DNA from: Eledone cirrhosa
Lineage: Eukaryota
Length of the DNA stretch: 64,000 nt
Direction of reading: 5' to 3'
NCBI GenBank assembly: GCA_964016885.1
Contig: OZ024742.1
Location: forward strand, 24,614,001 to 24,678,000
Part shown: piece after piece, positions 1 through 61,195 of the stretch
How the letters are laid out: each line of letters begins with the position of its first letter
Position numbering within the stretch: the stretch's first letter is position 1
Program-made: the position numbers and the translations under genes
Notes under the pieces: generated by a model
What the model saw: the letters and a program-made list of their open reading frames with translations, nothing else
Database searches by the model: none
Told to the model about the DNA's origin: nothing

Positions 1-3000
1 GTTAGACTGAAACTATGAGATGACTGCTGTGGATTGTGGCCTGTTGCTGTAAGACTGAAGCTATGAGATGACTGCTGTGGATTGTTGCCTGTTGCTGTAA
101 GGCGGAAGCTATGAGATGAATGCTGTGGATTGTGGCCTGTTGCTGTGTGGCTGAAGGTATGAGCTAACTGCTGTGGATTGTGGCCTGTTGCTGTAAGCCT
201 GAAGATATGAGATGATGGCTCTGGATTGTGGCCTGTTGCTGTAACGCTGAAGGTATGAGATGACTCTGTGGATTGTGGCCTGTTGCTGTGTGGCTGAAGG
301 TATGAGATGACTGCTGTGGATTGTGGCATGTTGCTGTGTGGCTAAAGGTATGAGATGACTGCTGTGGATTGTGGCCTGTTGCTGTAAGGCTGAAGGTATG
401 AGATGACTGCTGTGGATTGTGGATTGTTGTGAGGCTGAAGGTACGAGATGACTGCAGTGGATTGTGGCTTGTTGCTGTGAGGTTGAAGGTATGAGATGAC
501 TGAGATGACTGCTGTGGACTGTGGCCTGTTGCTGTAAGGCTGAAGGTAGGAGATGACTGCTGTGGATTGTGGCCTGTTGCTGTAAGACTGAAGCTATGAG
601 ATGACTGTTGTGGATTGTGGCCTGTTGCTGTAAGACTGAAGCTATGAGATGACTGCTGTGGATTGTTGCCTGTTGCTGTAAGGCGGAAGCTATGAGATGA
701 ATGCTGTGGATTGTGGCCTGTTGCTGTAAGGCTGAAGGTAGGAGATGACTGCTGTGGATTGTGTCCTGTTGCTGTGTGGCTGAAGGTATGAGCTAACTGC
801 TGTGGATTGTGGCCTGTTGCTGTAAGCCTGAAGATATGAGATGATGGCTCTGGATTGTGGCCTGTTGCTGTAACGCTGAAGGTATGAGATGACTCTGTGG
901 ATTGTGGCCTGTTGCTGTGTGGCTGAAGGTATGAGATGACTGCTGTGGATTGTGGCATGTTGCTGTGTGGCTAAAGGTATGAGATGACTGCTGTGGATTG
1001 TGGCCTGTTGCTGTAAGGCTGAAGGTATGAGATGACTGCTGTGGATTGTGGATTGTTGTGAGGCTGAAGGTACGAGATGACTGCAGTGGATTGTGGCTTG
1101 TTGCTGTGAGGTTGAAGGTATGAGATGACTGCTGTGGATTGTGGCCTGTTGCTGTAAGGCTGAAGGTATGAGATGACTGCTGTGGACTGTGGCCTGTTGC
1201 TGTAAGGCTGAAGGTAGGAGATGACTGCTGTGGATTGTGGCCTGTTGCTGTAAGACTGAAGCTATGAGATGACTGTTGTGGATTGTGGCCTGTTGCTGTA
1301 AGACTGAAGCTATGAGATGACTGCTGTGGATTGTTGCCTGTTGCTGTAAGGCGGAAGCTATGAGATGAATGCTGTGGATTGTGGCCTGTTGCTGTGTGGC
1401 TGAAGGTATGAGCTAACTGCTGTGGATTGTGGCCTGTTGCTGTAAGCCTGAAGATATGAGATGACGGCTCTGGATTGTGGCCTGTTGTTGTAAGGCTGAA
1501 GGTATGAGATGACTCTGTGGATTGTGCCCTGTTGCTGTGTGGCTGAAGTTATGAGATGACTGCTGTGGATTGTGGCCTGTTGCTGTAAGCCTGAAGATAT
1601 GAGATGACTCTGTGGATTGTGGCCTGTTGCTGTGTGGCTGAATGTATGAGATGACTGCTGTGGATTGTGGCATGTTGCTGTGTGGCTGAAGGTATGAGAT
1701 GACTGCTGTGGATTGTGGCCTGCTGCTGTAAGACTGAAGGTATGAGATGACTGCTGTGGATTGTGGCCTGCTGCTGTAAGGCTGAAGGTATGAGATGACT
1801 GCTGTGGATTGTGGCTTGTTGTTGTGAGGCTGAAGGTATGAGATGACTGCTGTGGATTGTGGCTTGTTGTCGTGAGGCTGAAGGTATGATATGACTGCTG
1901 TGGATTGTGGCCTGTTGCTGTAAGGCTGAAGGTATGAGATGACTGCTGTGGATTGTGGCCTGCTGCTGTAAGGCTGAAGGTATCAGATGACTGCTGTGGA
2001 TTGTGGCCTGCTGCTGTAAGGCTGAAGGTATGAGATGACTGCTGTGGATTGTGGCTTGTTGTTGTGAGGCTGAATGTATGAGATGACTGCTGTGGATTGT
2101 GGCCTGCTGCTGTAAGGCTGAAGGTATGAGATGACTGCTGTGGATTGTGGCCTGTTGCTGTAAGGCTGAATGTATAAGATGACCGCTGTGGATTGTGGCT
2201 TGTTGTTGTGAGGCTGAAGGTATGAGATGACTGCTGTGGATTGTGACCTGTTGCTGAGTGACTGAAGGTATGAGATGACTGCTGTGGATTGTGGCCTGTT
2301 GCTGAGTGAGTGAAGGTATGAGATGACTGCTGTGGATTGTGGCCTGTTGCTGAGTGAGTGAAGGTATGAGATGACTGCTGTGGATTGTGGCCTGTTGCTG
2401 TATGACTGAAGCTATGAGATGACTGCTCTGGAGTGTGGCCTGTTGCTGTAAGACTGAAGGTATGAGATGACTGCTGTGGATTGTGGCCTGTTGCTGTGTG
2501 GCTGAAGGTATGAGATGACTCTGTGGATTGTTGCCTGTTGCTGTGTGGCTGAAGGTATGAGATTACTGCTGTGGATTGTGGCATGTTGCTGTGTGGCTGA
2601 AGGTATGAGATTACTGCTGTGGATTGTGGCCTGTTGCTGAGTGAGTGAAGGTATGAGATGACTGCTGTGGATTGTGGCCTGTTGCTGAGTGAGTGAAGGT
2701 ATGAGATGACTGCTCTGGAGTGTGGCCTGTTGCTGTAAGACTGAAGGTATGAGATGACTGCTGTGGATTGTGGCCTGTTGCTGTGTGTCTGAAGGTATGA
2801 GATGACTGCTGTGGATTGTGGCCTGTTGCTGTAAGCCTGAAGATATGAGATGACTCTGTGGATTGTGGCCTGTTGCTGTGTGGCTGAATGTATGAGATGA
2901 CTGCTGTGGATTGTGGCATGTTGCTGTGTGGCTGAAGGTATGAGATGACTGCTGTGGATTGTGGCCTGCTGCTGTAAGACTGAAGGTATGAGATGACTGC

Positions 3001-5703
3001 TGTGGATTGTGGCCTGCTGCTGTAAGGCTGAAGATATGAGATGACTGCTGTGGATTGTGGCTTGTTGTTGTGAGGCTGAAGGTATGAGATGACTGCTGTG
3101 GATTGTGGCTTGTTGTCGTGAGGCTGAAGGTATGATATGACTACTGTGGATTGTGGCCTGTTGCTGTAAGGCTGAAGGTATGAGATGACTGCTGTGGATT
3201 GTGGCCTGCTGCTGTAAGGCTGAAGGTATGAGATGACTGCTGTGGATTGTGGCCTGCTGCTGTAAGGCTGAAGGTATGAGATGACTGCTGTGGATTGTGG
3301 CTTGTTGTTGTGAGGCTGAATGTATGAGATGACTGCTGTGGATTGTGGCCTGCTGCTGTAAGGCTGAAGGTATGAGATGACTGCTGTGGATTGTGGCCTG
3401 TTGCTGTAAGGCTGAATGTATAAGATGACCGCTGTGGATTGTGGCTTGTTGTTGTGAGGCTGAAGGTATGAGATGACTGGTGTGGATTGTGGCATGTTGC
3501 TATGTGGCTGAAGGTATGAGATGACTGCTGTGGATTGTGGCCTGTTGCTGAGTGACTGAAGGTATGAGATGACTGCTGTGGATTGTGGCCTGTTGCTGAG
3601 TGAGTGAAGGTATGAGATGACTGCTGTGGATTGTGGCCTGTTGCTGAGTGAGTGAAGGTATGAGATGACTGCTGTGGATTGTGGCATGTTGCTGTATGAC
3701 TGAAGCTATGAGATGACTGCTCTGGAGTGTGGCCTGTTGCTGTAAGACTGAAGGTATGAGATGACTGCTGTGGATTGTGGCCTGTTGCTGTGTGGCTGAA
3801 GGTATGAGATGACTCTGTGGATTGTTGCCTGTTGCTGTGTGGCTGAAGGTATGAGATTACTGCTGTGAATTGTGGCATGTTGCTGTGTGGCTGAAGGTAT
3901 GAGATTACTGCTGTGGCTTGTGGCCTGTTGCTGAGTGAGTGAAGGTATGAGATGACTGCTGTGGATTGTGGCCTGTTGCTGAGTGAGTGAAGGTATGAGA
4001 TGACTGCTCTGGAGTGTGGCCTGTTGCTGTAAGACTGAAGGTATGAGATGACTGCTGTGGATTGTGGCCTGTTGCTGTGTGGCTGAATGTATGAGATGAC
4101 TGCTGTTGATTGTGGCCTGTTGCTGTAAGCCTGAAGATATGAGATGACTCTGTGGATTGTGGCCTGTTGCTGTGTGGCTGAAGGTATGAGATGACTGCTG
4201 TGGATTGTGGCCTGCTGCTGTAAGACTGAAGGTATGAGATGACTGCTGTGGATTGTGGCCTGCTGCTGTAAGGCTGAAGGTATGAGATGACTGCTGTGGA
4301 TTGTGGCTTGTTGTTGTGAGGCTGAAGGTATGAGATGACTGCTGTGGATTGTGGCTTGTTGTCGTGAGGCTGAAGGTATGATATGACTGCTGTGGATTGT
4401 GGCCTGTTGCTGTAAGGCTGAAGGTATGAGATGACTGCTGTGGATTGTGGCCTGCTGCTGTAAGGCTGAAGGTATGAGATGACTGCTGTGGATTGTGGCC
4501 TGCTGCTGTAAGGCTGAAGGTATGAGATGACTGCTGTGGATTGTGGCTTGTTGTTGTGAGGCTGAATGTATGAGATGACTGCTGTGGATTGTGGCCTGCT
4601 GCTGTAAGGCTGAAGGTATGAGATGACTGCTGTGGATTGTGGCCTGTTGCTGTAAGGCTGAAGGTATAAGATGACCACTGTGGATTGTGGCTTGTTGTTG
4701 TGAGGCTGAAGGTATGAGATGACTGGTGTGGATTGTGGCATGTTGCTATGTGGCTGAAGGTATGAGATGACTGCTGTGGATTGTGGCCTGTTGCTGAGTG
4801 ACTGAAGGTATGAGATGACTGCTGTGGATTGTGGCCTGTTGCTGAGTGAGTGAAGGTATGAGATGACTGCTGTGGATTGTGGCCTGTTGCTGAGTGAGTG
4901 AAGGTATGAGATGACTGCTGTGGATTGTGGCCTGTTGCTGTATGACTGAAGCTATGAGATGACTGCTATGGAGTGTGGCCTGTTGCTGTAAGACTGAAGG
5001 TATGAGATGACTGCTGTGGATTGTGGCCTGTTGCTGTGTGGCTGAAGGTATGAGATGACTCTGTGGATTGTGGCCTGTTGCTGTGTGGCTGAAGGTATGA
5101 GATTACTGCTGTGGATTGTGGCATGTTGCTGTGTGGCTGAAGGTATGAGATTACTGCTGTGGATTGTGGCCTGTTGCTGAGTGAGTGAAGGTATGAGATG
5201 ACTGCTGTGGATTGTGGCCTGTTGCTGAGTGAGTGAAGGTATGAGATGACTGCTCTGGAGTGTGGCCTGTTGCTGTAAGACTGAAGGTATGAGATGACTG
5301 CTGTGGATTGTGGCCTGTTGCTGTGTGGCTGAAGGTATGAGATGACTCTGTGGATTGTGGCCTGTTGCTGTGTGGCTGAAGGTATGAGATTACTGCTGTG
5401 GATTGTGGCATGTTGCTGAGTGAGTGAAGGTATGAGATGACTGCTGTGGATTGTGGCCTGTTGCTGTATGACTGAAGCTATGAGATGACTGCTGTGGATT
5501 GTGGCCTGTTGCTGTAAGCCTGAAGATATGAGATGACGGCTCTGGATTGTGGCCTGTTGCTGTAAGGCTGAAGGTATGAGATGACTGCTGTGGATTGTGG
5601 CCTGTTGCTGTAAGACTGAAGGTTTCAGATGACTGCTGTTCATTGTGGCCTGCTGCTGTAAGGCTGAAGGTATGAGATGACTGCTGTGGATTGTGGCCTG
5701 TTG
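1..5703. repeat. 48-bp tandem satellite (~119 units, runs off left edge) with higher-order repeats
   Basis: Unit GCTGAAGGTATGAGATGACTGCTGTGGATTGTGGCCTGTTGCTGTAAG. Variant markers (GTCGTGAGG at ~1871/3117/4363; ATAAGATGACC at ~2181/3427/4673) recur every 1246 bp. Confidence 0.97.
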
Positions 5704-5743
5704 CTGCAAAGCATGGCGTCCGACCCTCTATCGATACTGCTAA
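5704..5743 (-). mobile_element. 5' head fragment of tRNA-derived SINE family 2
   Basis: Matches the head of the full copy at 63214-63400 (AAAGCATGGCGTCCGACCCTCTA.CGATACTGC). Confidence 0.75.
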
Positions 5744-6074: not shown

Positions 6075-9000
6075 TATATTAATGACGCTTTAATGGTCAG
6101 ACCTCGTCGTTCCCTGAGAAGTATAATGTAAATGCGTTTTTTCTTATCTCTCTCCAGCCTATCGGTCCATTCATTCATATATCCGTATCATCGCCCAGAA
6201 TCCAATCTTTGCTCTCTCTCAATGCTATTCTATAATTCTGTCTGGTTGTTTCTAAATAATCTTCTTGTATTTTAAAACCCCATTATTCGCTTATTATTAC
6301 TGTTATATGCTTCTCCGATAATGCCCAAAATTTGAAGATTTCATTTAAACCCTCTCGCTAACTACCCCGTTTGTTTATCTAAAATAACAATCTTGTTTGT
6401 TTAATTTTGACCGAAGAATTCTAGGATTTATAAAATGGCCTCATTGTCCCTCTTATCCTTTACCCCCGGTCCCACTATATCGTATTACGCGCCGGCTAAT
6501 TCTGTCCCACTGTTCTAAATAATCTTCTCCACGACGCTTGTTCTAAATAATCTTCTCTTTGCTAACTACCCCATACCCCCACTCTCCACCGTTATTATTT
6601 GGACCAATCACAAGTCAACGGCCTATGCTATCACTTCTGGCTGCTTTTCGATATGATGGATGGACTAAGGAATTTCTGGAGAGTCTGAAGAATCTGGACA
6701 CTCGATGACAATGCCAAAGATAACGACAAATTCACCTCATGCTGCCAGACGAAAGGGCAAGGCCCCCTCCTCTTTGTTTCGGCCGCGGATGGCCAATATA
6801 ACCCCAACCCCATCCCCCTCACCCCTCCCTGCGCCCCATCCTCCAAACACAATCCAAAACTTCAGAGTTGGTACCATGAATGTAGGCACCTTAAAAGGCC
6901 ACTCTAATGAGGTTGTAGAAATGCTTGAACGTAAGGAGGTTGATGTTTGCTGTATCCAAGAGACCAGGTGGAGGGGCGGGTCGGCTAGATTCATTGTGGG
7001 TAAAAAACGTTGCTATAAGCTTTCTGGGTGGGAAATAACAATGGGATAGGTGGGTTAGGAATCATGTTAGCAGAAAAATGGGTGGATAAGATAATAGATG
7101 TAAATAAAGTGAATGACAGAATAATTAAAATAAGACTTGTTCTAAATAGAACTACTGTGACAGTAATATCTGCATACCCAATCCGGACTTCCTGGCGCTA
7201 TAAAAGACAGATTCTATGAGACACTGATGCTCACTACCTCCCAAATAACCGACAGTGACTATATAATTATTGCTGGCAACCTAAATGGCCACGTTGGACA
7301 ACATTGTGACGGCTATGACGGAATCCACGGAGGCTATGGGTTTGGTACTAGAAACGAGGAAGGCTCCAGAATCCTGGAATTCTGTGATGCAAATAACCTA
7401 ACTATCTGTAACACTAACTTCAAAAAACGAGACAATCACTTGATCACCTACAGATCAGGGGAACATACCAGCCCGGTAGATTATATCCTTACCAGAAGAC
7501 GTGACGGAGTATCTGTTGTAAACACTAAATCCCTCCCCCATGAAGAATGCACCTCCCAACATAGACTGATAATTAGCGACCACATAGTCAGGACGAGACG
7601 TACTAGACAGCAGAAGAGAGAAAAATAAGTAAGGCAATCAAAGATATGAAGACGGGTAAGGCGGCTGGGCCTTCGGAAATAGTTGCCGAGATGCTGAAGG
7701 CATCTGGAACGGTGGGACACACTATGGTCACCCGGATAGTAAACCAAGTCATACAGAATGGGTTTGTTCCGAAGGACTGGCATAGCAGCATCATCATTAA
7801 CTGCTACAAGGGTAAAGGAGACACCCTAGATAGGAGTAACTATAGAGGCATTAAATTAATCGACCAGGTCATGAAGGTCACGGAAAAAGTAATAGCGCAA
7901 CTAATCAGAGAGAGAATTGATCTAGATGAAATGCAGTTCGGGTTTGTGTAAGGCAAAAGTACCACAGACGCTCTTTTCATTGTACGACAACTACAGGAGA
8001 AGTACCTAGCTAAAAGTAAACCCTTATACTAAGATTTTGTCGACTTGGAGAAAGCCTTCGACAGAGTCCCCCTTTCCATTATCTGGTGGGCTCTTAGAAA
8101 ACTAGGTGTTGATGAATGGCTTGTGAGAGCTATACAAGCCATGTATAAAGAAACAGTCAGCAAGGTTAGAATTAACAATGAATATAGTGAAGAGTTTAGC
8201 GTAAAAGTTGGTGTTCTTCAGGGCTCTGTTCTTAGCCCCCTACTATTTATTATTGCCATTCAGGCTATAACAGTGGCGTTCAAGACCGGCTGCCCATGGG
8301 AACTCCTATATGCAGATGATCTAACGCTCATAGCTGAATCACTGGCCGAGCTAGAGAAGAAATTCCAAACATGGAATCACGGCCTAGAATCAAAAGGCCT
8401 TTTAATTAACCTGGCTAAGACTAAAGTTCTAGTTTGTAGGAAAGAAAATAAGGCACCGGTTCCTTCCGGGAAATGGCCATGCTCAGTGTGTAGGAAAGGC
8501 GTAGGTAGAAACTCCATTTTATGTCCCAAATGCAAAGTATGGGTGCATAAAAGATGTAGTGGGATCACAGGTAAGCTAAGAACATAGATTTTACATGTGG
8601 CCGGTGCTCTGGTGCAATAAGTAGCAGCAAGTGCCCACAAACTACTAGCTCTTTCAATTGCGCAGAGGGTTCTATAGAAATAGTGGACAGCTTCCGTTAC
8701 CTGGGTGACAATATCAGCAGTGGGGGAGGGTGCTCTGAAAGTACAGTAGCTAGAGTCAGAACTGGATGGAAAAGGTTCAGAGAGCTTATACCACTATTAG
8801 CCGCTAAAGGGTTCTCCCTAAAAATGAAAGGCAGGCTGTATGATGCCTGCATACGAACAGCAATGTTGCATGGCAGTGAGACCTGGGCATTGTGTGCAGA
8901 GGATATACGCAGACTAGAGAGGAACGAAGCTTGTATGCTCCGCTGGATGTGTAATAGTAATATACGTGAACGGCAAAGCATAAACGAACTAAGGGAAAAA

Positions 9001-9657
9001 TTAGAAATAAGAGGGATCAGATGTTGTTTACTCGAGAGAAGGCTACGTTGGTATGGTCACGTGATGCACATGAAAGACGACAGCTGTATAAAAAAGTGCA
9101 GGGCAATAAAGATAGATGGTAGCCACGGAGTAGGCAGACCCAGAAAAACCTGGGACGACTTGATAAATTCTGACCTCACACACTTACACCTCTCCAAGAC
9201 AATGTCACTGGACCTAGATCTTTGGCGGTACTCAGTAATAGAGAAGACCCGCCTTACCTAAATACAAAGTAAAACCTACTACAGTCAGTAGGCATCTCTA
9301 ACAAAATACACCCCTGTCCCACCACCCCCACCCCATCCACGCCGCCCCTTTCAATGTAAAGTTATGTTGGTACCACAACATCCAGGCCAAAACAAATGAG
9401 ATTGTGTAGGTGTCATAACAAAAAAACACACAGTCCACGCTGTAATGTGACCGTGTAGGCAACATGGTAAAAACCCCCAGTCCCACACTGTAAATGTGGT
9501 TGGTGTTAGGAAGGGCATCAAGCTGTAGAAAACCCACCAGACAGTCCTATGCGAGCAAGACAACGACTCTTGCCTCAAGTGGGAAAACTCCCATCCAAAC
9601 CCATGCAAGCGTGGAACACGGACGTTAAACGATGATGATGATGATGATGACGATGAT
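6075..9657 (+). mobile_element. RTE-clade LINE, family A, decayed copy with internal deletion
   Basis: EN, RT (YADD), PHD-like and C-terminal fragments are colinear with the 39520-42495 ORF. About 630 bp are missing at ~7620. 3' UTR and (GAT)n tail present. The 5' boundary is approximate. Confidence 0.93.
6705..9261 (+). pseudogene. Disrupted RTE endonuclease/reverse transcriptase ORF
   Basis: Split ORFs 6705-7049, 7028-7219, 7227-7628, 7646-7951, 8045-8587 and 8683-9261, separated by frameshifts and stops. Confidence 0.93.
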
Positions 9658-22089: not shown

Positions 22090-22255
22090 AATGAAGGCAC
22101 ATAGCTTAGTGGTTAGAGCATTGGGCTTGCAATCGAAAGGTTGTGAGTTCAATTCTCGGACTGGGTGATGTGTTGTTTCCTTGAGCAAGACACTTTATTT
22201 CACGTTGCTCCAGTTTACTCAGCTGTAGAAATGAGATGATAGGACTGGGTTCCCT
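22090..22255 (+). mobile_element. SINE family 1 head plus CORE, lacking the RTE tail
   Basis: Matches 36389-36555. More diverged copies at ~20730-20875 (-) and ~52825-52950 (+). Confidence 0.85.
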
Positions 22256-28854: not shown

Positions 28855-29140
28855 CACATATTTCATTTTACATCCGCTTTTCCCTGCTTGCAAGGGTGGG
28901 ACGGGAACTGATTCTGGCTTGATTTCTACAGCTGGATGCCCTTCCTAACACCAACCTCATTTACAGTGAGAGCTGGGTGCTTTTTTGCCGTGGCACCTAC
29001 ACAACCTTTCGATTGCAAAGCCAATGCTCTAACCACTAAGCCACGTGCTTCCATATATATATATATATACATATATATATAATGTATATATATATATATA
29101 TAAATATATATTATATATATATATATATTATATATATATA

Positions 29141-29193
<53 letters not shown>

Positions 29194-29198
29194 ATATA

Positions 29199-29874
29199 TC
29201 ATCATCATCATCATCAACGTTTAACGTCCGTGTTCCACGCTTGCATGGGTTTGGACGGGGGTTTTCCCACTTGAGGCAAGAGTGATTGTCTTGCTCGCAT
29301 AGGACTGTCTGGCAGGTTTTCTACAGTTGGATGCCCTTCCTAACACCAACCACATTTACAGTGTGGGTCTGGGAGGTTTTTACCGTGTTGCCTACACGGC
29401 CACATTACAGCGTGGACTGTGTGTTTTTTTGTCGTGACACCTACACGATCTCATTTGTTTCGGCCTGGATGGTGTGGCACCAACATAACTTTACATAGAA
29501 GGGGGTGGTGTGGATGGGGTGGGGGTGGTGGGACGGGGGTGTATTTTGTTAGAGATGCCTACTGACTGTAGCAGGTTTTACTATGTATTTAGGTAAGGCG
29601 AGTCTTCTTTATTACTGAGTACCGCCAAAGGTCTGGGTCCAGTGACATCATCTTGGAGAGGTGTAAGTGTGTGAGGTCGGAGTTTATCAGCTCGTCCCAG
29701 GTTTTTCTAGGTCTGCCTATTCCGTGGCTACCGTCTATCTTTATTGCCCTGCACTTTGTTATACAGCTATCGACTTTCATGCGCATCACGTGTCCATACC
29801 AACGTAGCCTTCTCTCGAGTAAACAACATCTGATCCCTCTTATTTCTAATTTTTTCCTTAGTTTCTAATTTTTT

Positions 29875-29878
<4 letters not shown>
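29199..29878 (-). mobile_element. RTE family A, 5'-truncated
   Basis: ORF 29589-29789 matches the C-terminus of the 39520-42495 ORF; 3' UTR and tail; (TA)n on both sides. Confidence 0.92.
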
Positions 29879-29951
<73 letters not shown>

Positions 29952-29955
<4 letters not shown>

Positions 29956-30640
29956 CTTTAATGCGACGAAATGCCTACGACGGTTGGAAGGCCACTGATG
30001 AAGGACAAACTTTTTCATATGTAACCCATTTGCAGCGCCGCAGCTCCATTATTATCATATTTACACATATATTTTTTCCTCCGCTGCCACCAGTCTATTT
30101 CGTTCTTTGTGTCTTTACCCTTTCTAGCAGTCTCTCTCTCTCTGTTAGCCTCTTCCTCACCTTTCACCCACTCACTCTCTGTCACTACCTCTCTTCCTCC
30201 CCTTTCTTCCCGTTTGACCTGTCCGTAATCCTTTTCTCGCGGGCACTTGGCCAAGCCGGTATGAATTTATTTTCTCTCTCTCTCGTCTGCGACTTCACAG
30301 AACTTATGTTTACCGAATTCGCAGACCAGACCCCTTCTTCCTCCCGTTAGACCTGTGCGAAATTCCTTGCTTGCTCACATTTCAACCAGGTTTGATGATC
30401 TTTATTCTCTCGTTCACGATTCCACCGAATTTATATTCATAGAAATCTGGGACTTGTTTCTTTCTTCATCACTTTCTGCTGCTTAAACCATTTTGTTTGT
30501 TTACCCTAGCACTCCCTTTATTTACGTGTCCCAACGACTTTTTTTAGCCGTTGCTCGCACCAACCTGAGGTATATGGCCTTTAATGCGATGAAATGCCTA
30601 CGACGGTTGGAAGGCCACTGATGAGGACAAACTTTTTCAT
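29952..30640 (+). mobile_element. Non-coding terminally redundant element (623-nt unit plus ~67-nt direct repeat), retrozyme-like
   Basis: 29952-30020 is repeated at 30575-30642. Flanked by (TA)n. The repeat contains GAAA and CUGAUGA. Confidence 0.7.
30555..30630 (+). ncRNA. Candidate non-circularly permuted hammerhead ribozyme
   Basis: AGGUAU-A-UGGCCUU...GAA-AUGCCU...AAGGCCA-CUGAUGA. Stems I and III covary with the homolog at 38155-38230. Stem II is not evident. Confidence 0.55.
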
Positions 30641-31488
30641 ATATATATATATATATCTCTCATCATCGTTTTACGTCCGTTCTTCCAATATATATATATA
30701 ATGCGTATATGTACACACACAAACACACACACATATATGTAAATAGATAGATAAATATAGACACACACACTTATCACAATAAAAATGATTATATCTTGTG
30801 GAAAATAAAAAATGAGAACAAAATATTCTTTTCTGTCATATATAAATTATATATTAATAAATATGCAGCAGAATACTTAAAATTGTGTGATAAATACATT
30901 TCTCTGTGTCAGTTAATAATCAACTCTCTTTTTCTATTTTGTTTTTAAAAATATATCTGTCTATCTCAATTATAATTTCATCAACCTTAAATAACAGAGA
31001 ATCTAAGAAAATATATAATGAACAAAACATTTGATTTTGTATGGTGATGATATTAACCTGCCTGCAACCACACCTGGCTTAGATAAAAACCTTTTTTAAT
31101 CTGTAGTTATATAAAATTATGAAGGAATGTTTTAATTTAGATATGAAATTTTAGTTGTCACAACCAGCAGCTAACATTTTGAATTAATTAATGAAGAATT
31201 TGAAGGGATTTGCAAAAATTGTTTCATTATAACATTTGTAAGATAAAAACATATTCTTAGATAAATTATTTTGGGAGGTTTTGATTTAAATAGGTAGTTT
31301 TTGTTTCATAGTGGCAAAGGTAGGTTTGAGCAGGTTTATATGAAAAGGGTTAAGGGACCAATACTTGGGTCCAATTGTATTACATTCAATGGACATGGGG
31401 TAGATTAATGTCCTATTGAGCAGGAAAGGAGTAGGGTGTTGTGTCGGGTGACAGGCTGAAAAAAGTGTATCAATAAAACACCTGTAAC

Positions 31489-37970: not shown

Positions 37971-38284
37971 ACACCGGATTCACTAGCGAAAGTTTTGTTT
38001 TCTGACTCGCTCATATATTCACACAGCTTATGCTAAAAGAATAACTATGTTGCTTGTGTTTATTTCCATCTTCGGTTAGCTTCCCCCTGTGTTGTTTACT
38101 TGTCTCACTCGCTTTACGCGTTTCTATTGTCCTAATAACTTACTTTAGTTATTATCGCTCCAACGTGAGGTATATGATTTTTAATGCGATGAAATACCCA
38201 TGATCGTTTGGTAAATCACTGATGAGGGACTCATTTTATAACATGTTATCCATGTGCAACCAGCAGTATTCTTCTCACCCATAT

Positions 38285-38290
<6 letters not shown>
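37971..38290 (+). mobile_element. Diverged homolog of the 29952-30640 element with a permuted-HHR candidate (38155-38230)
   Basis: TGAGGTATATG.....TTAATGCGATGAAAT.CC....CACTGATGAGG is shared, and homology extends on both sides. Flanked by (TA)n. Confidence 0.7.
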
Positions 38291-41800: not shown

Positions 41801-42893
41801 GTAAGCTAACTAAGAACATAGATTTTACATGTGGCCGGTGCTCTGGTGCAATAAGTAGCAGCAAGTGCCCACAAACTACTAGCTCTTTCAATTGCGCAGA
41901 GGGTTCTATAGAAATAGTGGACAGCTTCCGTTACCTGGGCGATAAAATCAGCAGTGGGGGAGGGTGCTCTGAAAGTACTGTAGCTAGAGTCAGAACTGGT
42001 TGGAAAAAGTTCAGAGAGCTTATACCACTATTAGCTGCTAAAGGGTTCTCACTAAAAATGAAAGGCAGGTTGTACGATGCCTGCATACGAACAGCAATGC
42101 TGCATGGCAGTGAGACCTGGGCATTGTGTGCAGAGGATATACGCAGACTAGAGAGGAACGAAGCTTGCATGCTCCGCTGGATGTGTAACAGTAATATACG
42201 TGAACGGCAAAGCATAAACGAACTAAGGAAAAAATTAGAGATAAGAGGGATCAGATGTTGTTTACTCGAGAGAAGGCTACGTTGGTATGGACACGTGATG
42301 CGCATGAAAGTCGATAGCTGTATAACAAAGTGCAGGGCAATAAAGATAGACGGTAGTCACGGAATAGGCAGACCTAGAAAAACCTGGGACGAGCTGATAA
42401 ACTCCGACATCACACACTTACACCTCTCCAAGACAATGTCACTGGACCGAGACCTTTGGCGGTACTCAGTAACAGAGAAGACCCGCCTTACCTAAATATA
42501 TAGTAAAACCTACTCCAGCCAGTAGGCATCTCTAACAAAATACACCCCGTCCCACCACCCCCACCCCCACCCCATCCACACCACCCTGTTCTATGTAAAG
42601 TTATGTTGGTGCCGCGCCATCGAGGCCGAAACAAATGAGATCGTGTAGGTGTCACGACAAAAAAACACACAGTCCACGCTGTAATGTGGCCGTGTAGGCA
42701 ACACGGTAAAAACCTCCCAGACCCACACTGTAAATGTGGTTGGTGTTAGGAAGGGCATCCAACTGTAGAAAACCTGCCAGACAGTCCTATGCGAGCAAGA
42801 CAATCACTCTTGCCTCAAGTGGGACTACCCCCGTCCAAACCCATGCAAGCGTGGAACACGGACGTTAAACGTTGATGATGATGATGATGATGA
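38798..42893 (+). mobile_element. RTE-clade LINE family A, near full length
   Basis: Leader, single long EN-RT ORF, 3' UTR and (GAT)n tail; (TA)n on both sides. Confidence 0.96.
39520..42495 (+). CDS. APE-type endonuclease / reverse transcriptase with internal PHD-like finger (991 aa)
   Basis: CIQETRW, ISAYAP, GDLNGHVG, VDYIL, SQHRL (EN); FVDLEKAFD, YADD at 41539-41550, FRYLG (RT). The probable true start ATG at 39326 is out of frame by 1 nt. Confidence 0.95.
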   Translation: MLERKEVDVCCIQETRWRGGSARFIEGKKRCYKLFWVGNDDGLGGVGIMVAEKWADKIIDVNRVNDRIIKIRLVLNRTTVTVISAYAPQSGLPGTIKDRFYETLMLTTSQISDSDYIIIAGDLNGHVGQHCDGYDEIHGGYGFGTRNEEGSRILEFCDANNLTICNTNFKKRDNHLITYRSGEHTSQVDYILTRRRDRVSVVNTKSLPHEECTSQHRLIISDLIVRTRRTRQQKRTILRRKIWKLKDPTARNKFQSIFLDAFDSKEEHLESDNIEGEWEFLKANLLLATDEVCGWSRPVGRRRVTWWWNSKVEGSIKAKKQAWKVWRDGGSREDYQVARREARRQVYLARRGAEERKFKHVLQRDDQKREVFRIARQCVKENRDIVGEKCVLNDDGTLAITDADKKVAWKCHYERLLNEENNWEKGSLPHIDPIEGPAVLVEGSIISKAIKDMKTGKAAGPSEIVAEMLKASGTVGHTMVTRIVNQVVQNGVVPKDWHSSIIVNCYKGKGDALDRSNYRGIKLIDQVMKVTEKVIAQLIRERIDLDEMQFGFVSGKSTTDALFIVRQLQEKYLAKGKPLYLAFVDLEKAFDRVPRSIIWWALRKLGVDEWLVRAIQAMYKETVSKVRINNEYSEEFSVKVGVHQGSVLSPLLFIIALQAITEELKTGCPWELLYADDLTLIAESMAELEKKFQTWKHGLESKGLKINLAKTKVLVCRKENKAAVPSGKWSCSVCRKGVGRNSILCPKCKVWVHKRCSGITGKLTKNIDFTCGRCSGAISSSKCPQTTSSFNCAEGSIEIVDSFRYLGDKISSGGGCSESTVARVRTGWKKFRELIPLLAAKGFSLKMKGRLYDACIRTAMLHGSETWALCAEDIRRLERNEACMLRWMCNSNIRERQSINELRKKLEIRGIRCCLLERRLRWYGHVMRMKVDSCITKCRAIKIDGSHGIGRPRKTWDELINSDITHLHLSKTMSLDRDLWRYSVTEKTRLT

Positions 42894-48663: not shown

Positions 48664-50171
48664 ACCACCAGTACCTTCACTCTCAGTATACCATTGAGGT
48701 GCACCAACCATCTCTACCTTCACTCTCAGTATACCATTGAGGTGCACCAACCATCTCTACCTTCACTCTTAGTATACCATTGAGGTGCACCAACCATCTC
48801 TACCTTCACTCACAGTATACCATTGAGGTGCACCAACCATCTCTACCTTCACTCTTAGTATACCATTGAGGTGCACCAACCATCTCTACCTTCACTCTTA
48901 GTATACCATTGAGGTGCACCAACCATCTCTACCTTCACTCTCAGTATACCATTGAGGTGCACCAACCATCTCTACCTTCACTCTTAGTATACCATTGAGG
49001 TGCACCAACCATCTCTACCTTCACTCACAGTATACCATTGAGGTGCACCAACCATCTCTACCTTCACTCACAGTATACCATTGAGGTGCACCAACCATCT
49101 CTACCTTCACTCTTAGTATACCATTGAGGTGCACCAACCATCTCTACCTTCACTCTTAGTATACCATTGAGGTGCACCAACCATCTCTACCTTCACTCTT
49201 AGTATACCATTGAGGTGCACCAACCATCTCTACCTTCACTCTTAGTATACCATTGAGGTGCACCAACCATCTCTACCTTCACTCTTAGTATACCATTGAG
49301 GTGCACCAACCATCTCTACCTTCACTCTTAGTATACCATTGAGGTGCACCAACTATCTCTACCTTCACTCACAGTATACCATTAAGCTGTACTAACCATC
49401 TCTACCTTCACTCACAGTATACCATTGAGCTGTACTAACCATCTCTACCTTTGCTCACAGTATACCATTGAGCTGTACTAACCATCTCTACCTTCACTCA
49501 CAGTATACCATTGAGCTGTACTAACCATCTCTACCTTCACTCACAGTATACCATTGAGCTGTACTAACCATCTCTACCTTTGCTCACAGTATACCATTGA
49601 GCTGTACTAACCACCTCTACCTTCGCTCACAGTATACCATTGAGCTGTACTAACCATCTCTACCTTCGCTCACAGTATACCATTGAGCTGTACTAACCAT
49701 CTCTACCTTCGCTCACAGTATACCATTGAGCTGTACTAACCATCTCTACCTTCGCTCACAGTATACCATTGAGCTGTACTAACCATCTCTACCTTCGCTC
49801 ACAGTATACCATTGAGCTGTACTAACCATCTCTACCTTCACTCTTAGTATACCATTGAGGTGCACCAACTATCTCTACCTTCACTCACAGTATACCATTG
49901 AGCTGTACTAACCATCTCTACCTTCACTCTTAGTATACCATTGAGGTGTACCAACCACCTCTACCTCCACTCACAGTATACCATTGAGCTGTACTAACCA
50001 CTTCTACCTTCACTCTCAGTATACCATTCAGTTCTACCAACCACTTCTACCTCCACTCACAGTATACCATTCAGCTCTACCAACCACCTCTCCCTCCACT
50101 CACAGTATACCATTCAGCTCTACTAACCACCTCTACCTCCACTCACAGTATACCATTCAGCTCTACCAACC
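48664..50171. repeat. 43-bp minisatellite, ~35 units
   Basis: ACCAACCATCTCTACCTTCACTCTTAGTATACCATTGAGGTGC, with zoned variants. Confidence 0.96.
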
Positions 50172-51128
50172 AGAACTGTCTTTACTACCATTTGAACCTA
50201 CCACCTATGATTCAGTATGAAACATACCCAACTTTCTATCAGTCACCCCATTTATCCCCACCAAAATATACACATCAAATGTAAAAGAATGTCTTAGTGA
50301 AATAAATACAAACAGTTTATCATCCTCACTACTTTATCTATATTTTCCATACTTACGTGGGTTGGACAGGTTGTCAATTTTTTAGGCCAGATATGTTAGA
50401 TGTCTCTTGTGCTCAAATATTCCACTTAGAAATAGTTAATATGGGTGTATGCCCTTCTTAATGTCAACCACTGTTTCAAGACATCTATTGAGAGCGTTTT
50501 GTTGTAGCACTAGCATTGCCACCTAACAGGGTGGACTAGGTGCTTTCATCATGGCACCAGGACTAATACTTTACAGAGTGGGCAGAGTGCAGGCTTTGTG
50601 GCTTCAGTACTAATGTGTGTATATATATATATATAATGAATATATGCAACACACAGAGACAAACACACATATGTGTGCATGGGGGTGTATATATTATGAG
50701 TTTTCATCTATATTTAGGTCATTGTTGATATTTGAGAATTATTTCTGCCAAGGATTAAATTGTTGTGAATATCAAGCTTTAGTAAGTATAATTGATAGTT
50801 TGAAAAATAAAAAGCTTTTAACATCGATACATGCTAGTAGATGATGGTTCAATAATATGACTGTGGCTGTATGTATATATATATATACATATATATTGTG
50901 TGTGTGTCTGTATATATGTATGTGGGTGTGTATGGGGATGTGTGTATAAGTTTGTGTGTGTGTGTGAATGTTGAATGTGTATTTTCTTATGTATGGTATA
51001 TGTTCATCTGTAGAATATGTATATATTGTGTGCTTGTGTGTGTGTATATATATATATATATATACACACACAAATATATATATATATATATATATACATA
51101 TGTGTATACATGTGTTTGTGTGTGTGCT

Positions 51129-58843: not shown

Positions 58844-59359
58844 CGCATAAGCAGAAAGAGATAGATAAAAAAGAGGCACTGTTCAGAGAGGGGGGTTGTT
58901 TGATGAGGAGAGTCCAGGGTATTCACCCTCAGAGCCCCCAATTAATGCAGCCCTGGCTACAAATTGAAAAGACTTGGAGGTAAATGTAAGGGGTCATAAT
59001 CTTGGTACATGTAAGAATTTTAATGGATATATGATGTAAGGGACTTTGGTCTTACCACAATGTCACATGTAAAGACTGGAAACGAGATATGGTGTGAGGA
59101 ATATGGTCAATCTGCATGTTGTAAAGAGCAGGAGATTGGTGAGGGAGCTTATTTTTGGTACATGTATTAAAGATTTGGAGGGAGATATATGGGAGAACTT
59201 AAATTTCAAGTCAGTTGCAATGGAGATGTGTTAGTGACCAGGTCGCAGACAGTGATGAGAGTTTTGATACCAGGAAATCAATGATAAATATAAAAGAAAG
59301 TGAACAGTTTTAGTGTGTTATTTAAATGGCTGAAATGAATCTTCCATGCTGGAATTATA

Positions 59360-59830
59360 TTAGTTTAAACACAGTCTCGGATCATGTCACTTGCCAGACA
59401 TATACAAACTGTGGCTCAAATGACTGTTCAATACGGTAATTGTTTTAATTCCAACACAGTCTCAGATCAAGTCATTTGCCAAACATGTACAAACTATGGT
59501 TCAAATGACTGTTCAATACAGTAATTGTTTGAGTTTCAACAGTCTCAGATTAAGTCACTTGCCAGATATGTACAAACTGTGGCTAAAATGACTGTTCAAT
59601 ATGGTAATTGTTTTACTTTCAACATGCAGTCTCAGATTAAGTCACTTGCCAGACATGTACAAACTATGGCTAAAATGACTGTTCAATATGGTAATTGTTT
59701 TAGTTTCAACATGCAGTCTCAGATTAAGTCTGTAGCCAGACATTTACAAACTGTGGCTCAAATAAATGTTCAACACAGTATTTGTTTTAGTTTCAACACA
59801 TTGTCTCAGGACAAGTCACTAGCCAGATAA
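59360..59830. repeat. ~87-bp tandem repeat, ~5.5 units
   Basis: AGTCTCAGAT.AAGTCACTTGCCAGA recurs at ~59372, 59458, 59541, 59628, 59715 and 59802. Confidence 0.9.
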
Positions 59831-60189
59831 GTACAGCACTCTGAAGTTTTACTTAGATTTTATGAAAACACCTTAATTTGTGGAAGTGAAGAATATTTTC
59901 ATGCAATCCTTAAGATCTTCAGTACCTACTTTATGAAATACTGGAGTACAAGCTAGGCCCTCAGTTGCCCAACAATAGCTGTATAGCAAACAAATTTCTA
60001 TAAAACATCCTTTGATTCCAGCTCTATTTATTGCTATTCAACTTCCATTAACACAGTTAAAATGTTATTCTAGTTTTCAAAGAATTGCGTTCTTGTTATA
60101 TTTTGAATATTTATTTTCTTTGTTTAAATCAAAGTGTTAAATATATTATAGGATTCTACACACAACATTACAGCATTACACTATATTAT

Positions 60190-61195
60190 ATAACACACCA
60201 CATTATTTCATACTAAACACCACATTATATAATACTACACACCACATTATATAATTGTTTCTACTTTTGGCACAAGGCCAGCAATTACCCAGTACATTAC
60301 TGGTATTTTATTTTATCGACCCCGTAAGGATGAAAGGCAAAGTTAACCTCGGCGGGATTTGAACTCAGACCGTAAAGGGACGTAACTATACTGGAAAGCA
60401 TGGCGTCCGACTCTCTACCAATACCTGCCAATCCACACCACATTATATAATATTACACACCACATTATATTATATAACACACCACATTATTTAATACTAC
60501 ACAGCATATCATATAATACCACACACCACATTATATAATACTACACACCACATTATTTAATACTACACACCACATTATATAATATAACACACCACATTAT
60601 TTAATACTACACACCATATCATATAATATAACAAACTACATTATAAAATACTACACACCACGTTATATAATGCTACACACCACATTATATAATACTAGAC
60701 ACCACATTATATAATACTACACACTACATTATATAATACTACACACCATGTTATATAATACTACACACCACGCTATATAATACTCCACACCACATTATAT
60801 AATACTACATGCCACATTATATAATACTACATACCACATTATATAATACTACACACCACAATATAACAATATATAATACTACACACCCCATTATATAATA
60901 CTACACACCGCATTATATAATACTACACATCACATTATATAATACTACACACCACATTATATAATACTACACACCACATTATATAATACTACGCACCATG
61001 TTATATAATACTACACACCACATTATATAATACTACACATCTGACAAGATAACACGCCACATTATATAATACTGCCCACCACATTATATAATACACCACA
61101 TTATATAATACTTCACACCACATTATATAATACTAGACACCACATTATATGATAACTACACATCTTACAAGATATTACACACTACATTACACCAT
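60190..61195. repeat. 22-bp minisatellite interrupted by a SINE
   Basis: Unit CACACCACATTATATAATACTA. Confidence 0.92.
60255..60433 (-). mobile_element. SINE family 2, near full length
   Basis: Colinear with 63214-63400. Confidence 0.9.

Follow-up and report, generated by a model that had tools for sequence, protein, structure and literature searches.

Hammerhead ribozymes can occur with their strands in non-circularly permuted orders, and the accessible portion of the report that describes them (Eckert et al. 2023, PMC10085705) places such forms only in environmental sequence and in one doubtful bacterial case. One of them, named type SGC, was shown there to cleave in vitro at 0.007–0.19 per minute, and none of its RNAs is given from the genome of a known organism; another, the C-S-G form, was seen in only two metagenome sequences. 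A second related system is that of the metazoan non-LTR retrozymes, which, according to the available parts of two reports (PMC7229834; bioRxiv 10.64898/2026.07.22.740005), are defined by type I hammerheads and make circles; their RNAs are ligated by RtcB in vitro, and mobilization by the machinery of Penelope-like elements (PLEs) has been proposed. PLEs themselves, in the sections available from PMC8557442, insert with 5′ truncation, an inverted 5′ copy and a bias for (TA)n, and possess a 30–40-bp tail that is often found at one end only. The same sections report that no canonical hammerhead was found in the Naiad PLEs, with eight records flagged “HHR_half_core”. In literature outside subscription journals, no report was found that links Naiads or cephalopods to permuted hammerheads or that places permuted hammerheads in animal retroelements.

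The window analyzed here, a 64,000-nt stretch of the genome of the cephalopod Eledone cirrhosa, contains an insert within (TA)n that brings these systems together (Table 1). The initial annotation had read the insert as one 623-nt unit plus a repeat of ~67 nt, starting at 29952 with the first base after a predicted cleavage triplet, and alignment bears out both points: (TA)37 at 29878–29952 lies directly 5′ of the insert, positions 30575 to ~30642 repeat the unit’s first ~67 nt, and (TA)n resumes beyond them. The repeat aligns 29948–30023 to 30571–30645, where the first copy contains an additional A and a single C/T change separates the two; the triplet in question is the AUA at 30572–30574 of the second. 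The first ribozyme copy is without its upstream strands, which were lost by truncation, and the second (30528–30628) alone is complete. An early caveat about TATA microhomology at the junction was well placed: flank and element share the TATA at 29948–29951, which leaves the position of the true 5′ junction ambiguous over about 5–6 nt.

Table 1. Coordinates of the insert, its predicted ribozyme and the tandem arrays of the 64,000-nt window.
Feature	Position	Strand	Basis or detail
(TA)n target, left flank	29878–29951	.	Ends in TATA also found in the element before the predicted cut
Non-coding 623-nt monomer, cut to cut	29952–30574	+	Alignment, fold calculation
First ribozyme copy, reduced to its 3′ half (stem I, GAAA, CUGAUGA)	29952–30006	+	Extra A at 30002
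Internal copy of the ~45–50-nt tail between the two fixed 3′ ends	30023–30072	+	Alignment; ends at unit positions ~72 and ~110–121
Upstream strand predicted to replace stem II	30528–30559	+	Pairing counts, covariation
Block S, with stem III extension (30560–65) and kink-turn short strand (30566–68)	30560–30581	+	Pattern, covariation
Block G: GAAA (30591–94), stem III	30585–30610	+	3-nt bulge and GA of kink-turn at 30599–30603; extension 3′ strand at 30605–10
Block C: stem I 3′ strand, CUGAUGA (30618–24), GGAC	30611–30628	+	Pattern, covariation
Fixed 3′ end (unit position ~66–72) passing into the right (TA)n	30629–30657	+	Alignment
Tandem array, 48-bp unit	7–5706		
Tandem array, 43-bp unit	48672–50172		
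Tandem array, 87-bp unit	59327–59835		
Tandem array, 22-bp unit	60434–61162		

The unit had also been described as lacking a credible ORF, and this description holds. Its sole ATG-started ORF of more than 100 aa (129 aa, 29961–30347) exists only because of the extra A in the first copy, is open in two of 37 family units and has no Pfam match, and a coding role was rejected. Rfam returned no hammerhead or other ribozyme, either in the whole window at the gathering score or between 29900 and 30700 at E ≤ 10. When the 623-nt monomer was folded as a circle, a z of −4.6 was obtained relative to 30 dinucleotide shuffles. The unit also holds an old internal duplication of ~129 nt, ~70% alike and visible in sister-family alignments, at positions ~253–392 and ~382–519 (window ~30204–30470), and a long tandem array elsewhere in the genome (L298:1–2131) has a 129-bp period and is built from the duplicated segment. 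A different repeat, with an (ATC)n end, lies directly left of the (TA)n at 29198–29880; it has inverted matches of 93–98% at 8987–9478 and 42221–42891 and is possibly the 3′ end of a LINE or SINE. Finally, a weak tRNA match (32 bits) at 22100–22163, with a similar reversed stretch near 29000–29050, is likely the head of a tRNA-derived SINE.

A search of the 3.0-Gb genome with the unit gave 3,724 first-look candidates, and scoring of the best 40 yielded 86 matches at 92–98% identity besides the window. An exact 30-nt pattern spanning the junction matched 741 times (control 0). Thirty-seven full units of this family, termed A, lie at a median distance of 1.3% from their majority sequence, and by this measure of divergence the family is young. 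Each unit has one predicted ribozyme, and the non-coding monomers occur in tandem, with head-to-tail multimers reaching more than four units (L028); family A pieces, up to 1,527 nt long, map wholly onto such head-to-tail monomers, in keeping with the original view of a non-coding unit rather than the LTR or pLTR of a longer element. The ribozyme motif, whose blocks follow the order cut site (S), GAAA (G) and CUGAUGA (C), was matched at least 8,314 times in the genome by families A–D (control 0), and a second pattern added 322 matches from families H, I and J (control 10). Individually, family B has 2,345 exact matches, a C-like family 4,169 (control 3) and family D 109, and 40 matches of family E were scored. 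The window itself contains a diverged family C copy (38117–38290, ~70% identical to the unit) with a complete S-G-C ribozyme, ending in (TA)n at the longer of the two 3′ sites described below. Part of the family D ribozyme has undergone a 40-bp tandem amplification at G000:C1:350207916-350208021 (L191–L193).

The mode of insertion was examined in the 100 matches listed first for contig C1, unselected for length, which gave 88 pieces at 64 loci (60 newly taken plus four already in the set, with five long ones left out). The 3′ ends are strikingly uniform: 77 of the 88 pieces end at unit position ~66–72 or ~107–121, two sites ~45 nt apart, and 64 of these 77 ends pass into (TA)n. Both orientations are present at 17 of the 64 loci, and one short and one long 3′ end are combined in 15 of the 17. 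The pieces thus display a fixed 3′ end with a tail, 5′ truncation, an inverted partner and a microsatellite target, all of them traits of PLE-mobilized sequences, and insertion of the PLE type is very likely on this evidence.

The pieces also carry information about the template. One cut site is crossed by 75 of the 77 pieces, a proportion that is partly a product of the sampling, and an independent check gave 846 matches to the 3′ part relative to 741 to the junction. Two cut sites are crossed by 20 of the 77, so the templates carried intact junctions. Derived variants, counted with two duplicate loci left out, are shared at 0.56% of sites between tandem pairs (100/17,914) and at 0.79% between inverted pairs (50/6,308), compared with 0.19% between loci (7,033/3,717,394). 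Sharing within a locus is therefore three to four times higher, as a common template would predict, and it fits either one circle read repeatedly or a homogeneous tandem source. A circular template is considered somewhat more likely than not.

The 5′ end of the window copy had originally been taken to reflect ribozyme processing, and a tabulation of the 5′ ends of genomic copies had been proposed as a check. Applied to the 88 pieces, this tabulation goes against the claim, with ends scattered over unit positions 1 to 618. Within (TA)n, only five copies begin at the cut, versus 741 that read through it (5/746, 0.7%); two of the five contain a full unit, namely the window copy and L033, and the other three are 72–120 nt long. 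A control TATA site inside the unit and unrelated to the ribozyme gave ten starts versus 794 intact sites (10/804, 1.2%), in a pattern that may take in sister families. In families B and C, 108 starts at the cut were counted versus roughly 7,000 intact sites, or about 1.5%, which is similar to the control rate. Since the rate at the cut is not above that of the control, the window copy very probably starts there by chance, through truncation combined with microhomology.

It is conceivable, though unlikely, that the window copy is instead the complete cDNA of a linear RNA cut at one site and left uncut at the next, with a 5′ end made by the ribozyme. The junction is compatible with a cut, L033 and the three short copies begin likewise, and the 108 starts in families B and C are of the same kind. 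Moreover, of 22 pieces long enough to reach the second cut, two stop no more than 5 nt from it, where 0.57 would be expected (not significant), and three inversion junctions of a score-selected set fall at unit positions 1, 3 and 8, one of the three (L017) also being among the 22. These observations are weighed down by the control rate given above, by the finding that the two ends near a cut among the 64 loci each lie at an inversion junction, and by the counts of 846 and 741 matches, a difference too small to accommodate many run-off copies. That the cut made the 5′ end would, in any event, matter little, and it probably did not.

The ribozyme itself differs from what was first supposed. All hammerhead core bases are in register at 30528–30628, which agrees with the initial prediction of a cut after the AUA triplet, but the motif had been treated as an ordinary hammerhead and its strand order is the non-canonical S-G-C. 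Block S comprises a strand of stem III, the AUA triplet with the predicted cut after 30574, and the 5′ strand of stem I. A descriptor covering all six block orders, when run over the window, gave this one match alone. The core elements CUGANGA, GAAA and an NUH triplet stand in register with the stems, as is required of a hammerhead; across 17 representatives the core bases are invariant except N7, and the triplet varies within NUH only (AUA, AUC, GUA and GUU). In every family, the blocks lie within ~100 nt of one another on linkers of near-constant length, with 16–18 nt between the cut and GAAA.

The 17 representatives were picked by the authors from 153 rows of fixed geometry, more than 60 of them supplied by family A. 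Among the representatives, 96.9% of cells are paired and two-sided changes occur in ten of 17 pairs, a result reached by none of 500 shuffles, although this control ignores the kinship of the rows and 0/500 is no probability; slid controls pair in 21–47% of cells. Stem I has two-sided changes in four of its five pairs and reads UGGCC/GGCCA, UGGUC/GAUCA, UGAUU/AAUCA and UAGUC/GACUA in families A to D, respectively. The stem III extension also covaries across families, while stem III has one-sided changes only in families A–G, and its second pair is C-G in E, H, I and J. In families E, H, I and J, moreover, stems I and III and the extension are kept with unrelated sequences. In family A, ribozyme and unit body have diverged at the same pace (1.2–1.7% vs. 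1.6%), which is to be expected after insertion and lends no support. Self-cleavage of the predicted ribozyme is regarded as likely.

Other ribozyme classes were also considered. A canonical hammerhead of type I, II or III does not fit the strand order. The 13-nt block A consensus of twister is matched in family A but no longer in family B, and of the elements that make up a twister (P1, P2, P4 and two pseudoknots around the UAA cut), P1, P2 and PK2 are unpaired by eye. Readings as HDV-like, hairpin, pistol and hatchet ribozymes were likewise compared by eye and dropped. An S-G-C motif with a much shorter linker from GAAA to CUGAUGA, and without a clear stem III extension, was seen on the minus strand of L296, near position 873 of the reversed locus.

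Two structural features set this fold apart. A kink-turn is characterized by a 3-nt bulge followed by tandem G.A and A.G pairs, between two helices. Such a bulge is present in the loop that separates stem III from its extension, with the tandem G.A in 145 of 153 rows and the A.G in 132, so that stem III of the predicted fold is interrupted by a kink-turn motif; family D has a U at one position of the pattern, and the pattern is absent in H and J. The second feature concerns stem II, whose direct first pair is present in 148 of the 153 rows while the next pairs are found in only 15 and one. An upstream strand is predicted to take its place: GUCC (30528–31) would pair with the GGAC after CUGAUGA, and UCGCA (30555–59) with the UGCGA before GAAA, with a predicted hairpin (30532–30553) between the two pairings. 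The pairing to the bases before GAAA is found in 130–145 of 153 rows per pair (110 for the fifth pair), and, by eye, the upstream strand of families E and H remains paired right up to GAAA. Over 16 rows, the hairpin covaries in five of seven pairs, whereas the two upstream pairings are conserved and barely covary (one of five and one of four pairs), with family D rows misaligned in one of these two helices. All six helices together are 93.4% paired in the 16 rows, with two-sided changes in 16 of 32 pairs. These counts suggest that stem II is replaced by a junction of helices, for which the support is weaker than for stems I and III. In ordinary type I motifs of PLEs of the same genome, the stem II junctions are also weak.

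Folding between adjacent tandem units, rather than within one, would yield a type II or double hammerhead, in which GAAA comes from one unit and the cut site and CUGAUGA from the next. Such an arrangement, G(n)-S(n+1)-C(n+1), would be canonical in a multimer, multimers of three to four units exist, and covariation is blind to the distinction. A dimer, however, would need neither blocks confined to ~100 nt nor the near-constant linkers of every family, the kink-turn motif supplies the bend needed in cis, and cis-acting SGC ribozymes have been proven in vitro, as the accessible portion of PMC10085705 reports. Inter-unit folding is therefore quite improbable. It is less probable still that the fold does not cleave and survives as a relic that serves the PLE RT as a recognition signal. 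Such a role would suit a fold that adjoins the fixed 3′ ends, is read through in most copies and is without a canonical stem II, but a binding signal needs neither an invariant core nor a triplet confined to NUH.

The origin of the fold appears to lie with the Naiads. The ends of six published Naiad records were read by eye, and three (Naiad_Ovul, the record preceding it and Naiad_Esco) parse in S-G-C order with a stem III extension; Naiad_Ovul and the preceding record also show the kink-turn pattern and the upstream strand. No such fold was seen by eye at the record ends of Naiad_Omin, Naiad_Adux (incomplete) and Naiad-1_Skow. Three other 3′ ends in the Naiad section of the PMC8557442 supplement, as far as that section is accessible, read by eye as complete C-S-G hammerheads with a helix between stems I and II, and one of these passages directly precedes Naiad_Hcon. 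It is likely that the fold derives from the 3′ end of Naiad PLEs.

The Naiads found in the genome itself are decayed. Seven remnants were found by motif and 46 matches by protein, with 69–83% pairwise identity, many stops and open frames of at most 233 aa, and none of 27 downstream stretches (seven plus 20 loci) contains a Naiad’s own S-G-C 3′ end. Neptune-like PLEs are young, with many pairs at 95–98% and one RT plus GIY-YIG frame of 938 aa; they end in (TA)n with different 3′ sequences, and some carry ordinary type I hammerheads. A GIY-YIG search gave 10,596 candidates, of which the best 150 were scored and 50 loci examined. Where an ORF was readable among these 50, it was Neptune-like and of the C-terminal-endonuclease kind, and none of the loci examined ends in a family A unit. 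Since family A is young, it was presumably moved either by an undetected Naiad or by another clade, and the present helper may be another PLE clade. The genome also contains a conventional non-LTR retrozyme array (L076:7598–9558), in which a ~490-bp unit carrying an ordinary type I hammerhead is present in five tandem copies. A longer coding PLE of which the unit would form just the pseudo-LTR or 3′ UTR is extremely improbable. The fold resembles Naiad 3′ ends, and a related unit lies near five of 20 PLE loci, but the one such locus read in detail (L072) holds it as a separate insertion behind (TA)n, and family A pieces map wholly onto the head-to-tail monomers described above.

The insert is thus probably a 5′-truncated copy of a non-autonomous retrozyme, placed into (TA)n by a PLE RT and carrying one predicted S-G-C hammerhead per unit. 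The retrozyme proposal of the initial annotation survives in its non-coding tandem units, predicted ribozyme and mobilization in trans; the 5′ end as a processing product does not. In the proposed mechanism, tandem transcripts would cut themselves once per 623 nt, and the monomers would likely be ligated into circles. A PLE endonuclease would nick (TA)n, and the nick would prime on an AU-rich site located ~72 or ~115 nt beyond the cut. From there, the RT would pass the junction, whether religated or uncut, once or in some cases repeatedly, before stopping at random; the window copy would have been joined at the cut by TATA microhomology. Within the ribozyme, the stem III extension would be brought back to stem I by the kink-turn, with the upstream strand and its hairpin standing in for stem II.

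It is tempting to go further and suggest that Naiads possess an unrecognized ribozyme (of C-S-G order in other Naiads): an active hammerhead of four strands that is open at stem II and held closed by a kink-turn together with a helix junction. On this view, it would drive thousands of circular-RNA retrozymes, which have outlived their Naiad parent by means of another PLE clade’s enzyme. This joint reading, its four-strand architecture included, is offered tentatively, as one that could well prove wrong. If true, it would place a permuted hammerhead at thousands of sites in an animal genome and extend ribozyme architecture with a new solution for stem II. It would also overturn the view that Naiads lack hammerheads, a view invoked in arguing that hammerheads are dispensable to PLEs, and it would mean that descriptor-based surveys of retrozymes miss whole families.

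Among known systems, as the accessible portions of the respective reports describe them, type SGC (HRIMA-1 and variants) is close to the ribozyme. It shares with the unit the S-G-C order, the core bases, stems I and III and a short linker between stem I and block G. Its stem II, however, has two to six further pairs between G and C, where the unit has one pair and an upstream strand with a hairpin; its helix joins the free sides of stems I and II, whereas in the unit the strand before stem I pairs upstream, with five of six pairs covarying. The unit adds a kink-turn-like loop and an extension in stem III, and its motif sits in thousands of animal genomic repeats, while type SGC is without cases from known genomes.

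Metazoan non-LTR retrozymes resemble the element as a whole. They too are non-coding tandem monomers with one hammerhead each and a proposed PLE mobilization, and 623 nt falls within the 51–972 bp reported for them (Cervera and de la Pena 2020, PMC7229834; Li et al. 2026, bioRxiv 10.64898/2026.07.22.740005). The unit nevertheless lacks the type I hammerhead that defines them, and its S-G-C order would be missed by their descriptors; moreover, circular RNA has been shown for these retrozymes and is predicted for the unit. Naiad PLEs (Craig et al. 2021, PMC8557442) share with it the (TA)n targets, 5′ truncation, inverted partner and short tail. By eye, the layout of its ribozyme is found in records marked HHR_half_core, with a similar upstream hairpin loop in Naiad_Ovul, but Naiads are 3.4–4.4 kb long and encode an endonuclease plus RT, and the unit encodes nothing; no living Naiad was found in the genome. 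Plant LTR retrozymes (PMC4918200) likewise have a monomer between direct repeats that hold the ribozyme, although theirs is of type III, within fixed LTR ends and 4-bp TSDs, and the unit’s terminal redundancy is a by-product of variable truncation. The unit is therefore most similar to a non-LTR retrozyme combined with a type-SGC hammerhead, and it departs from each in a defining feature.
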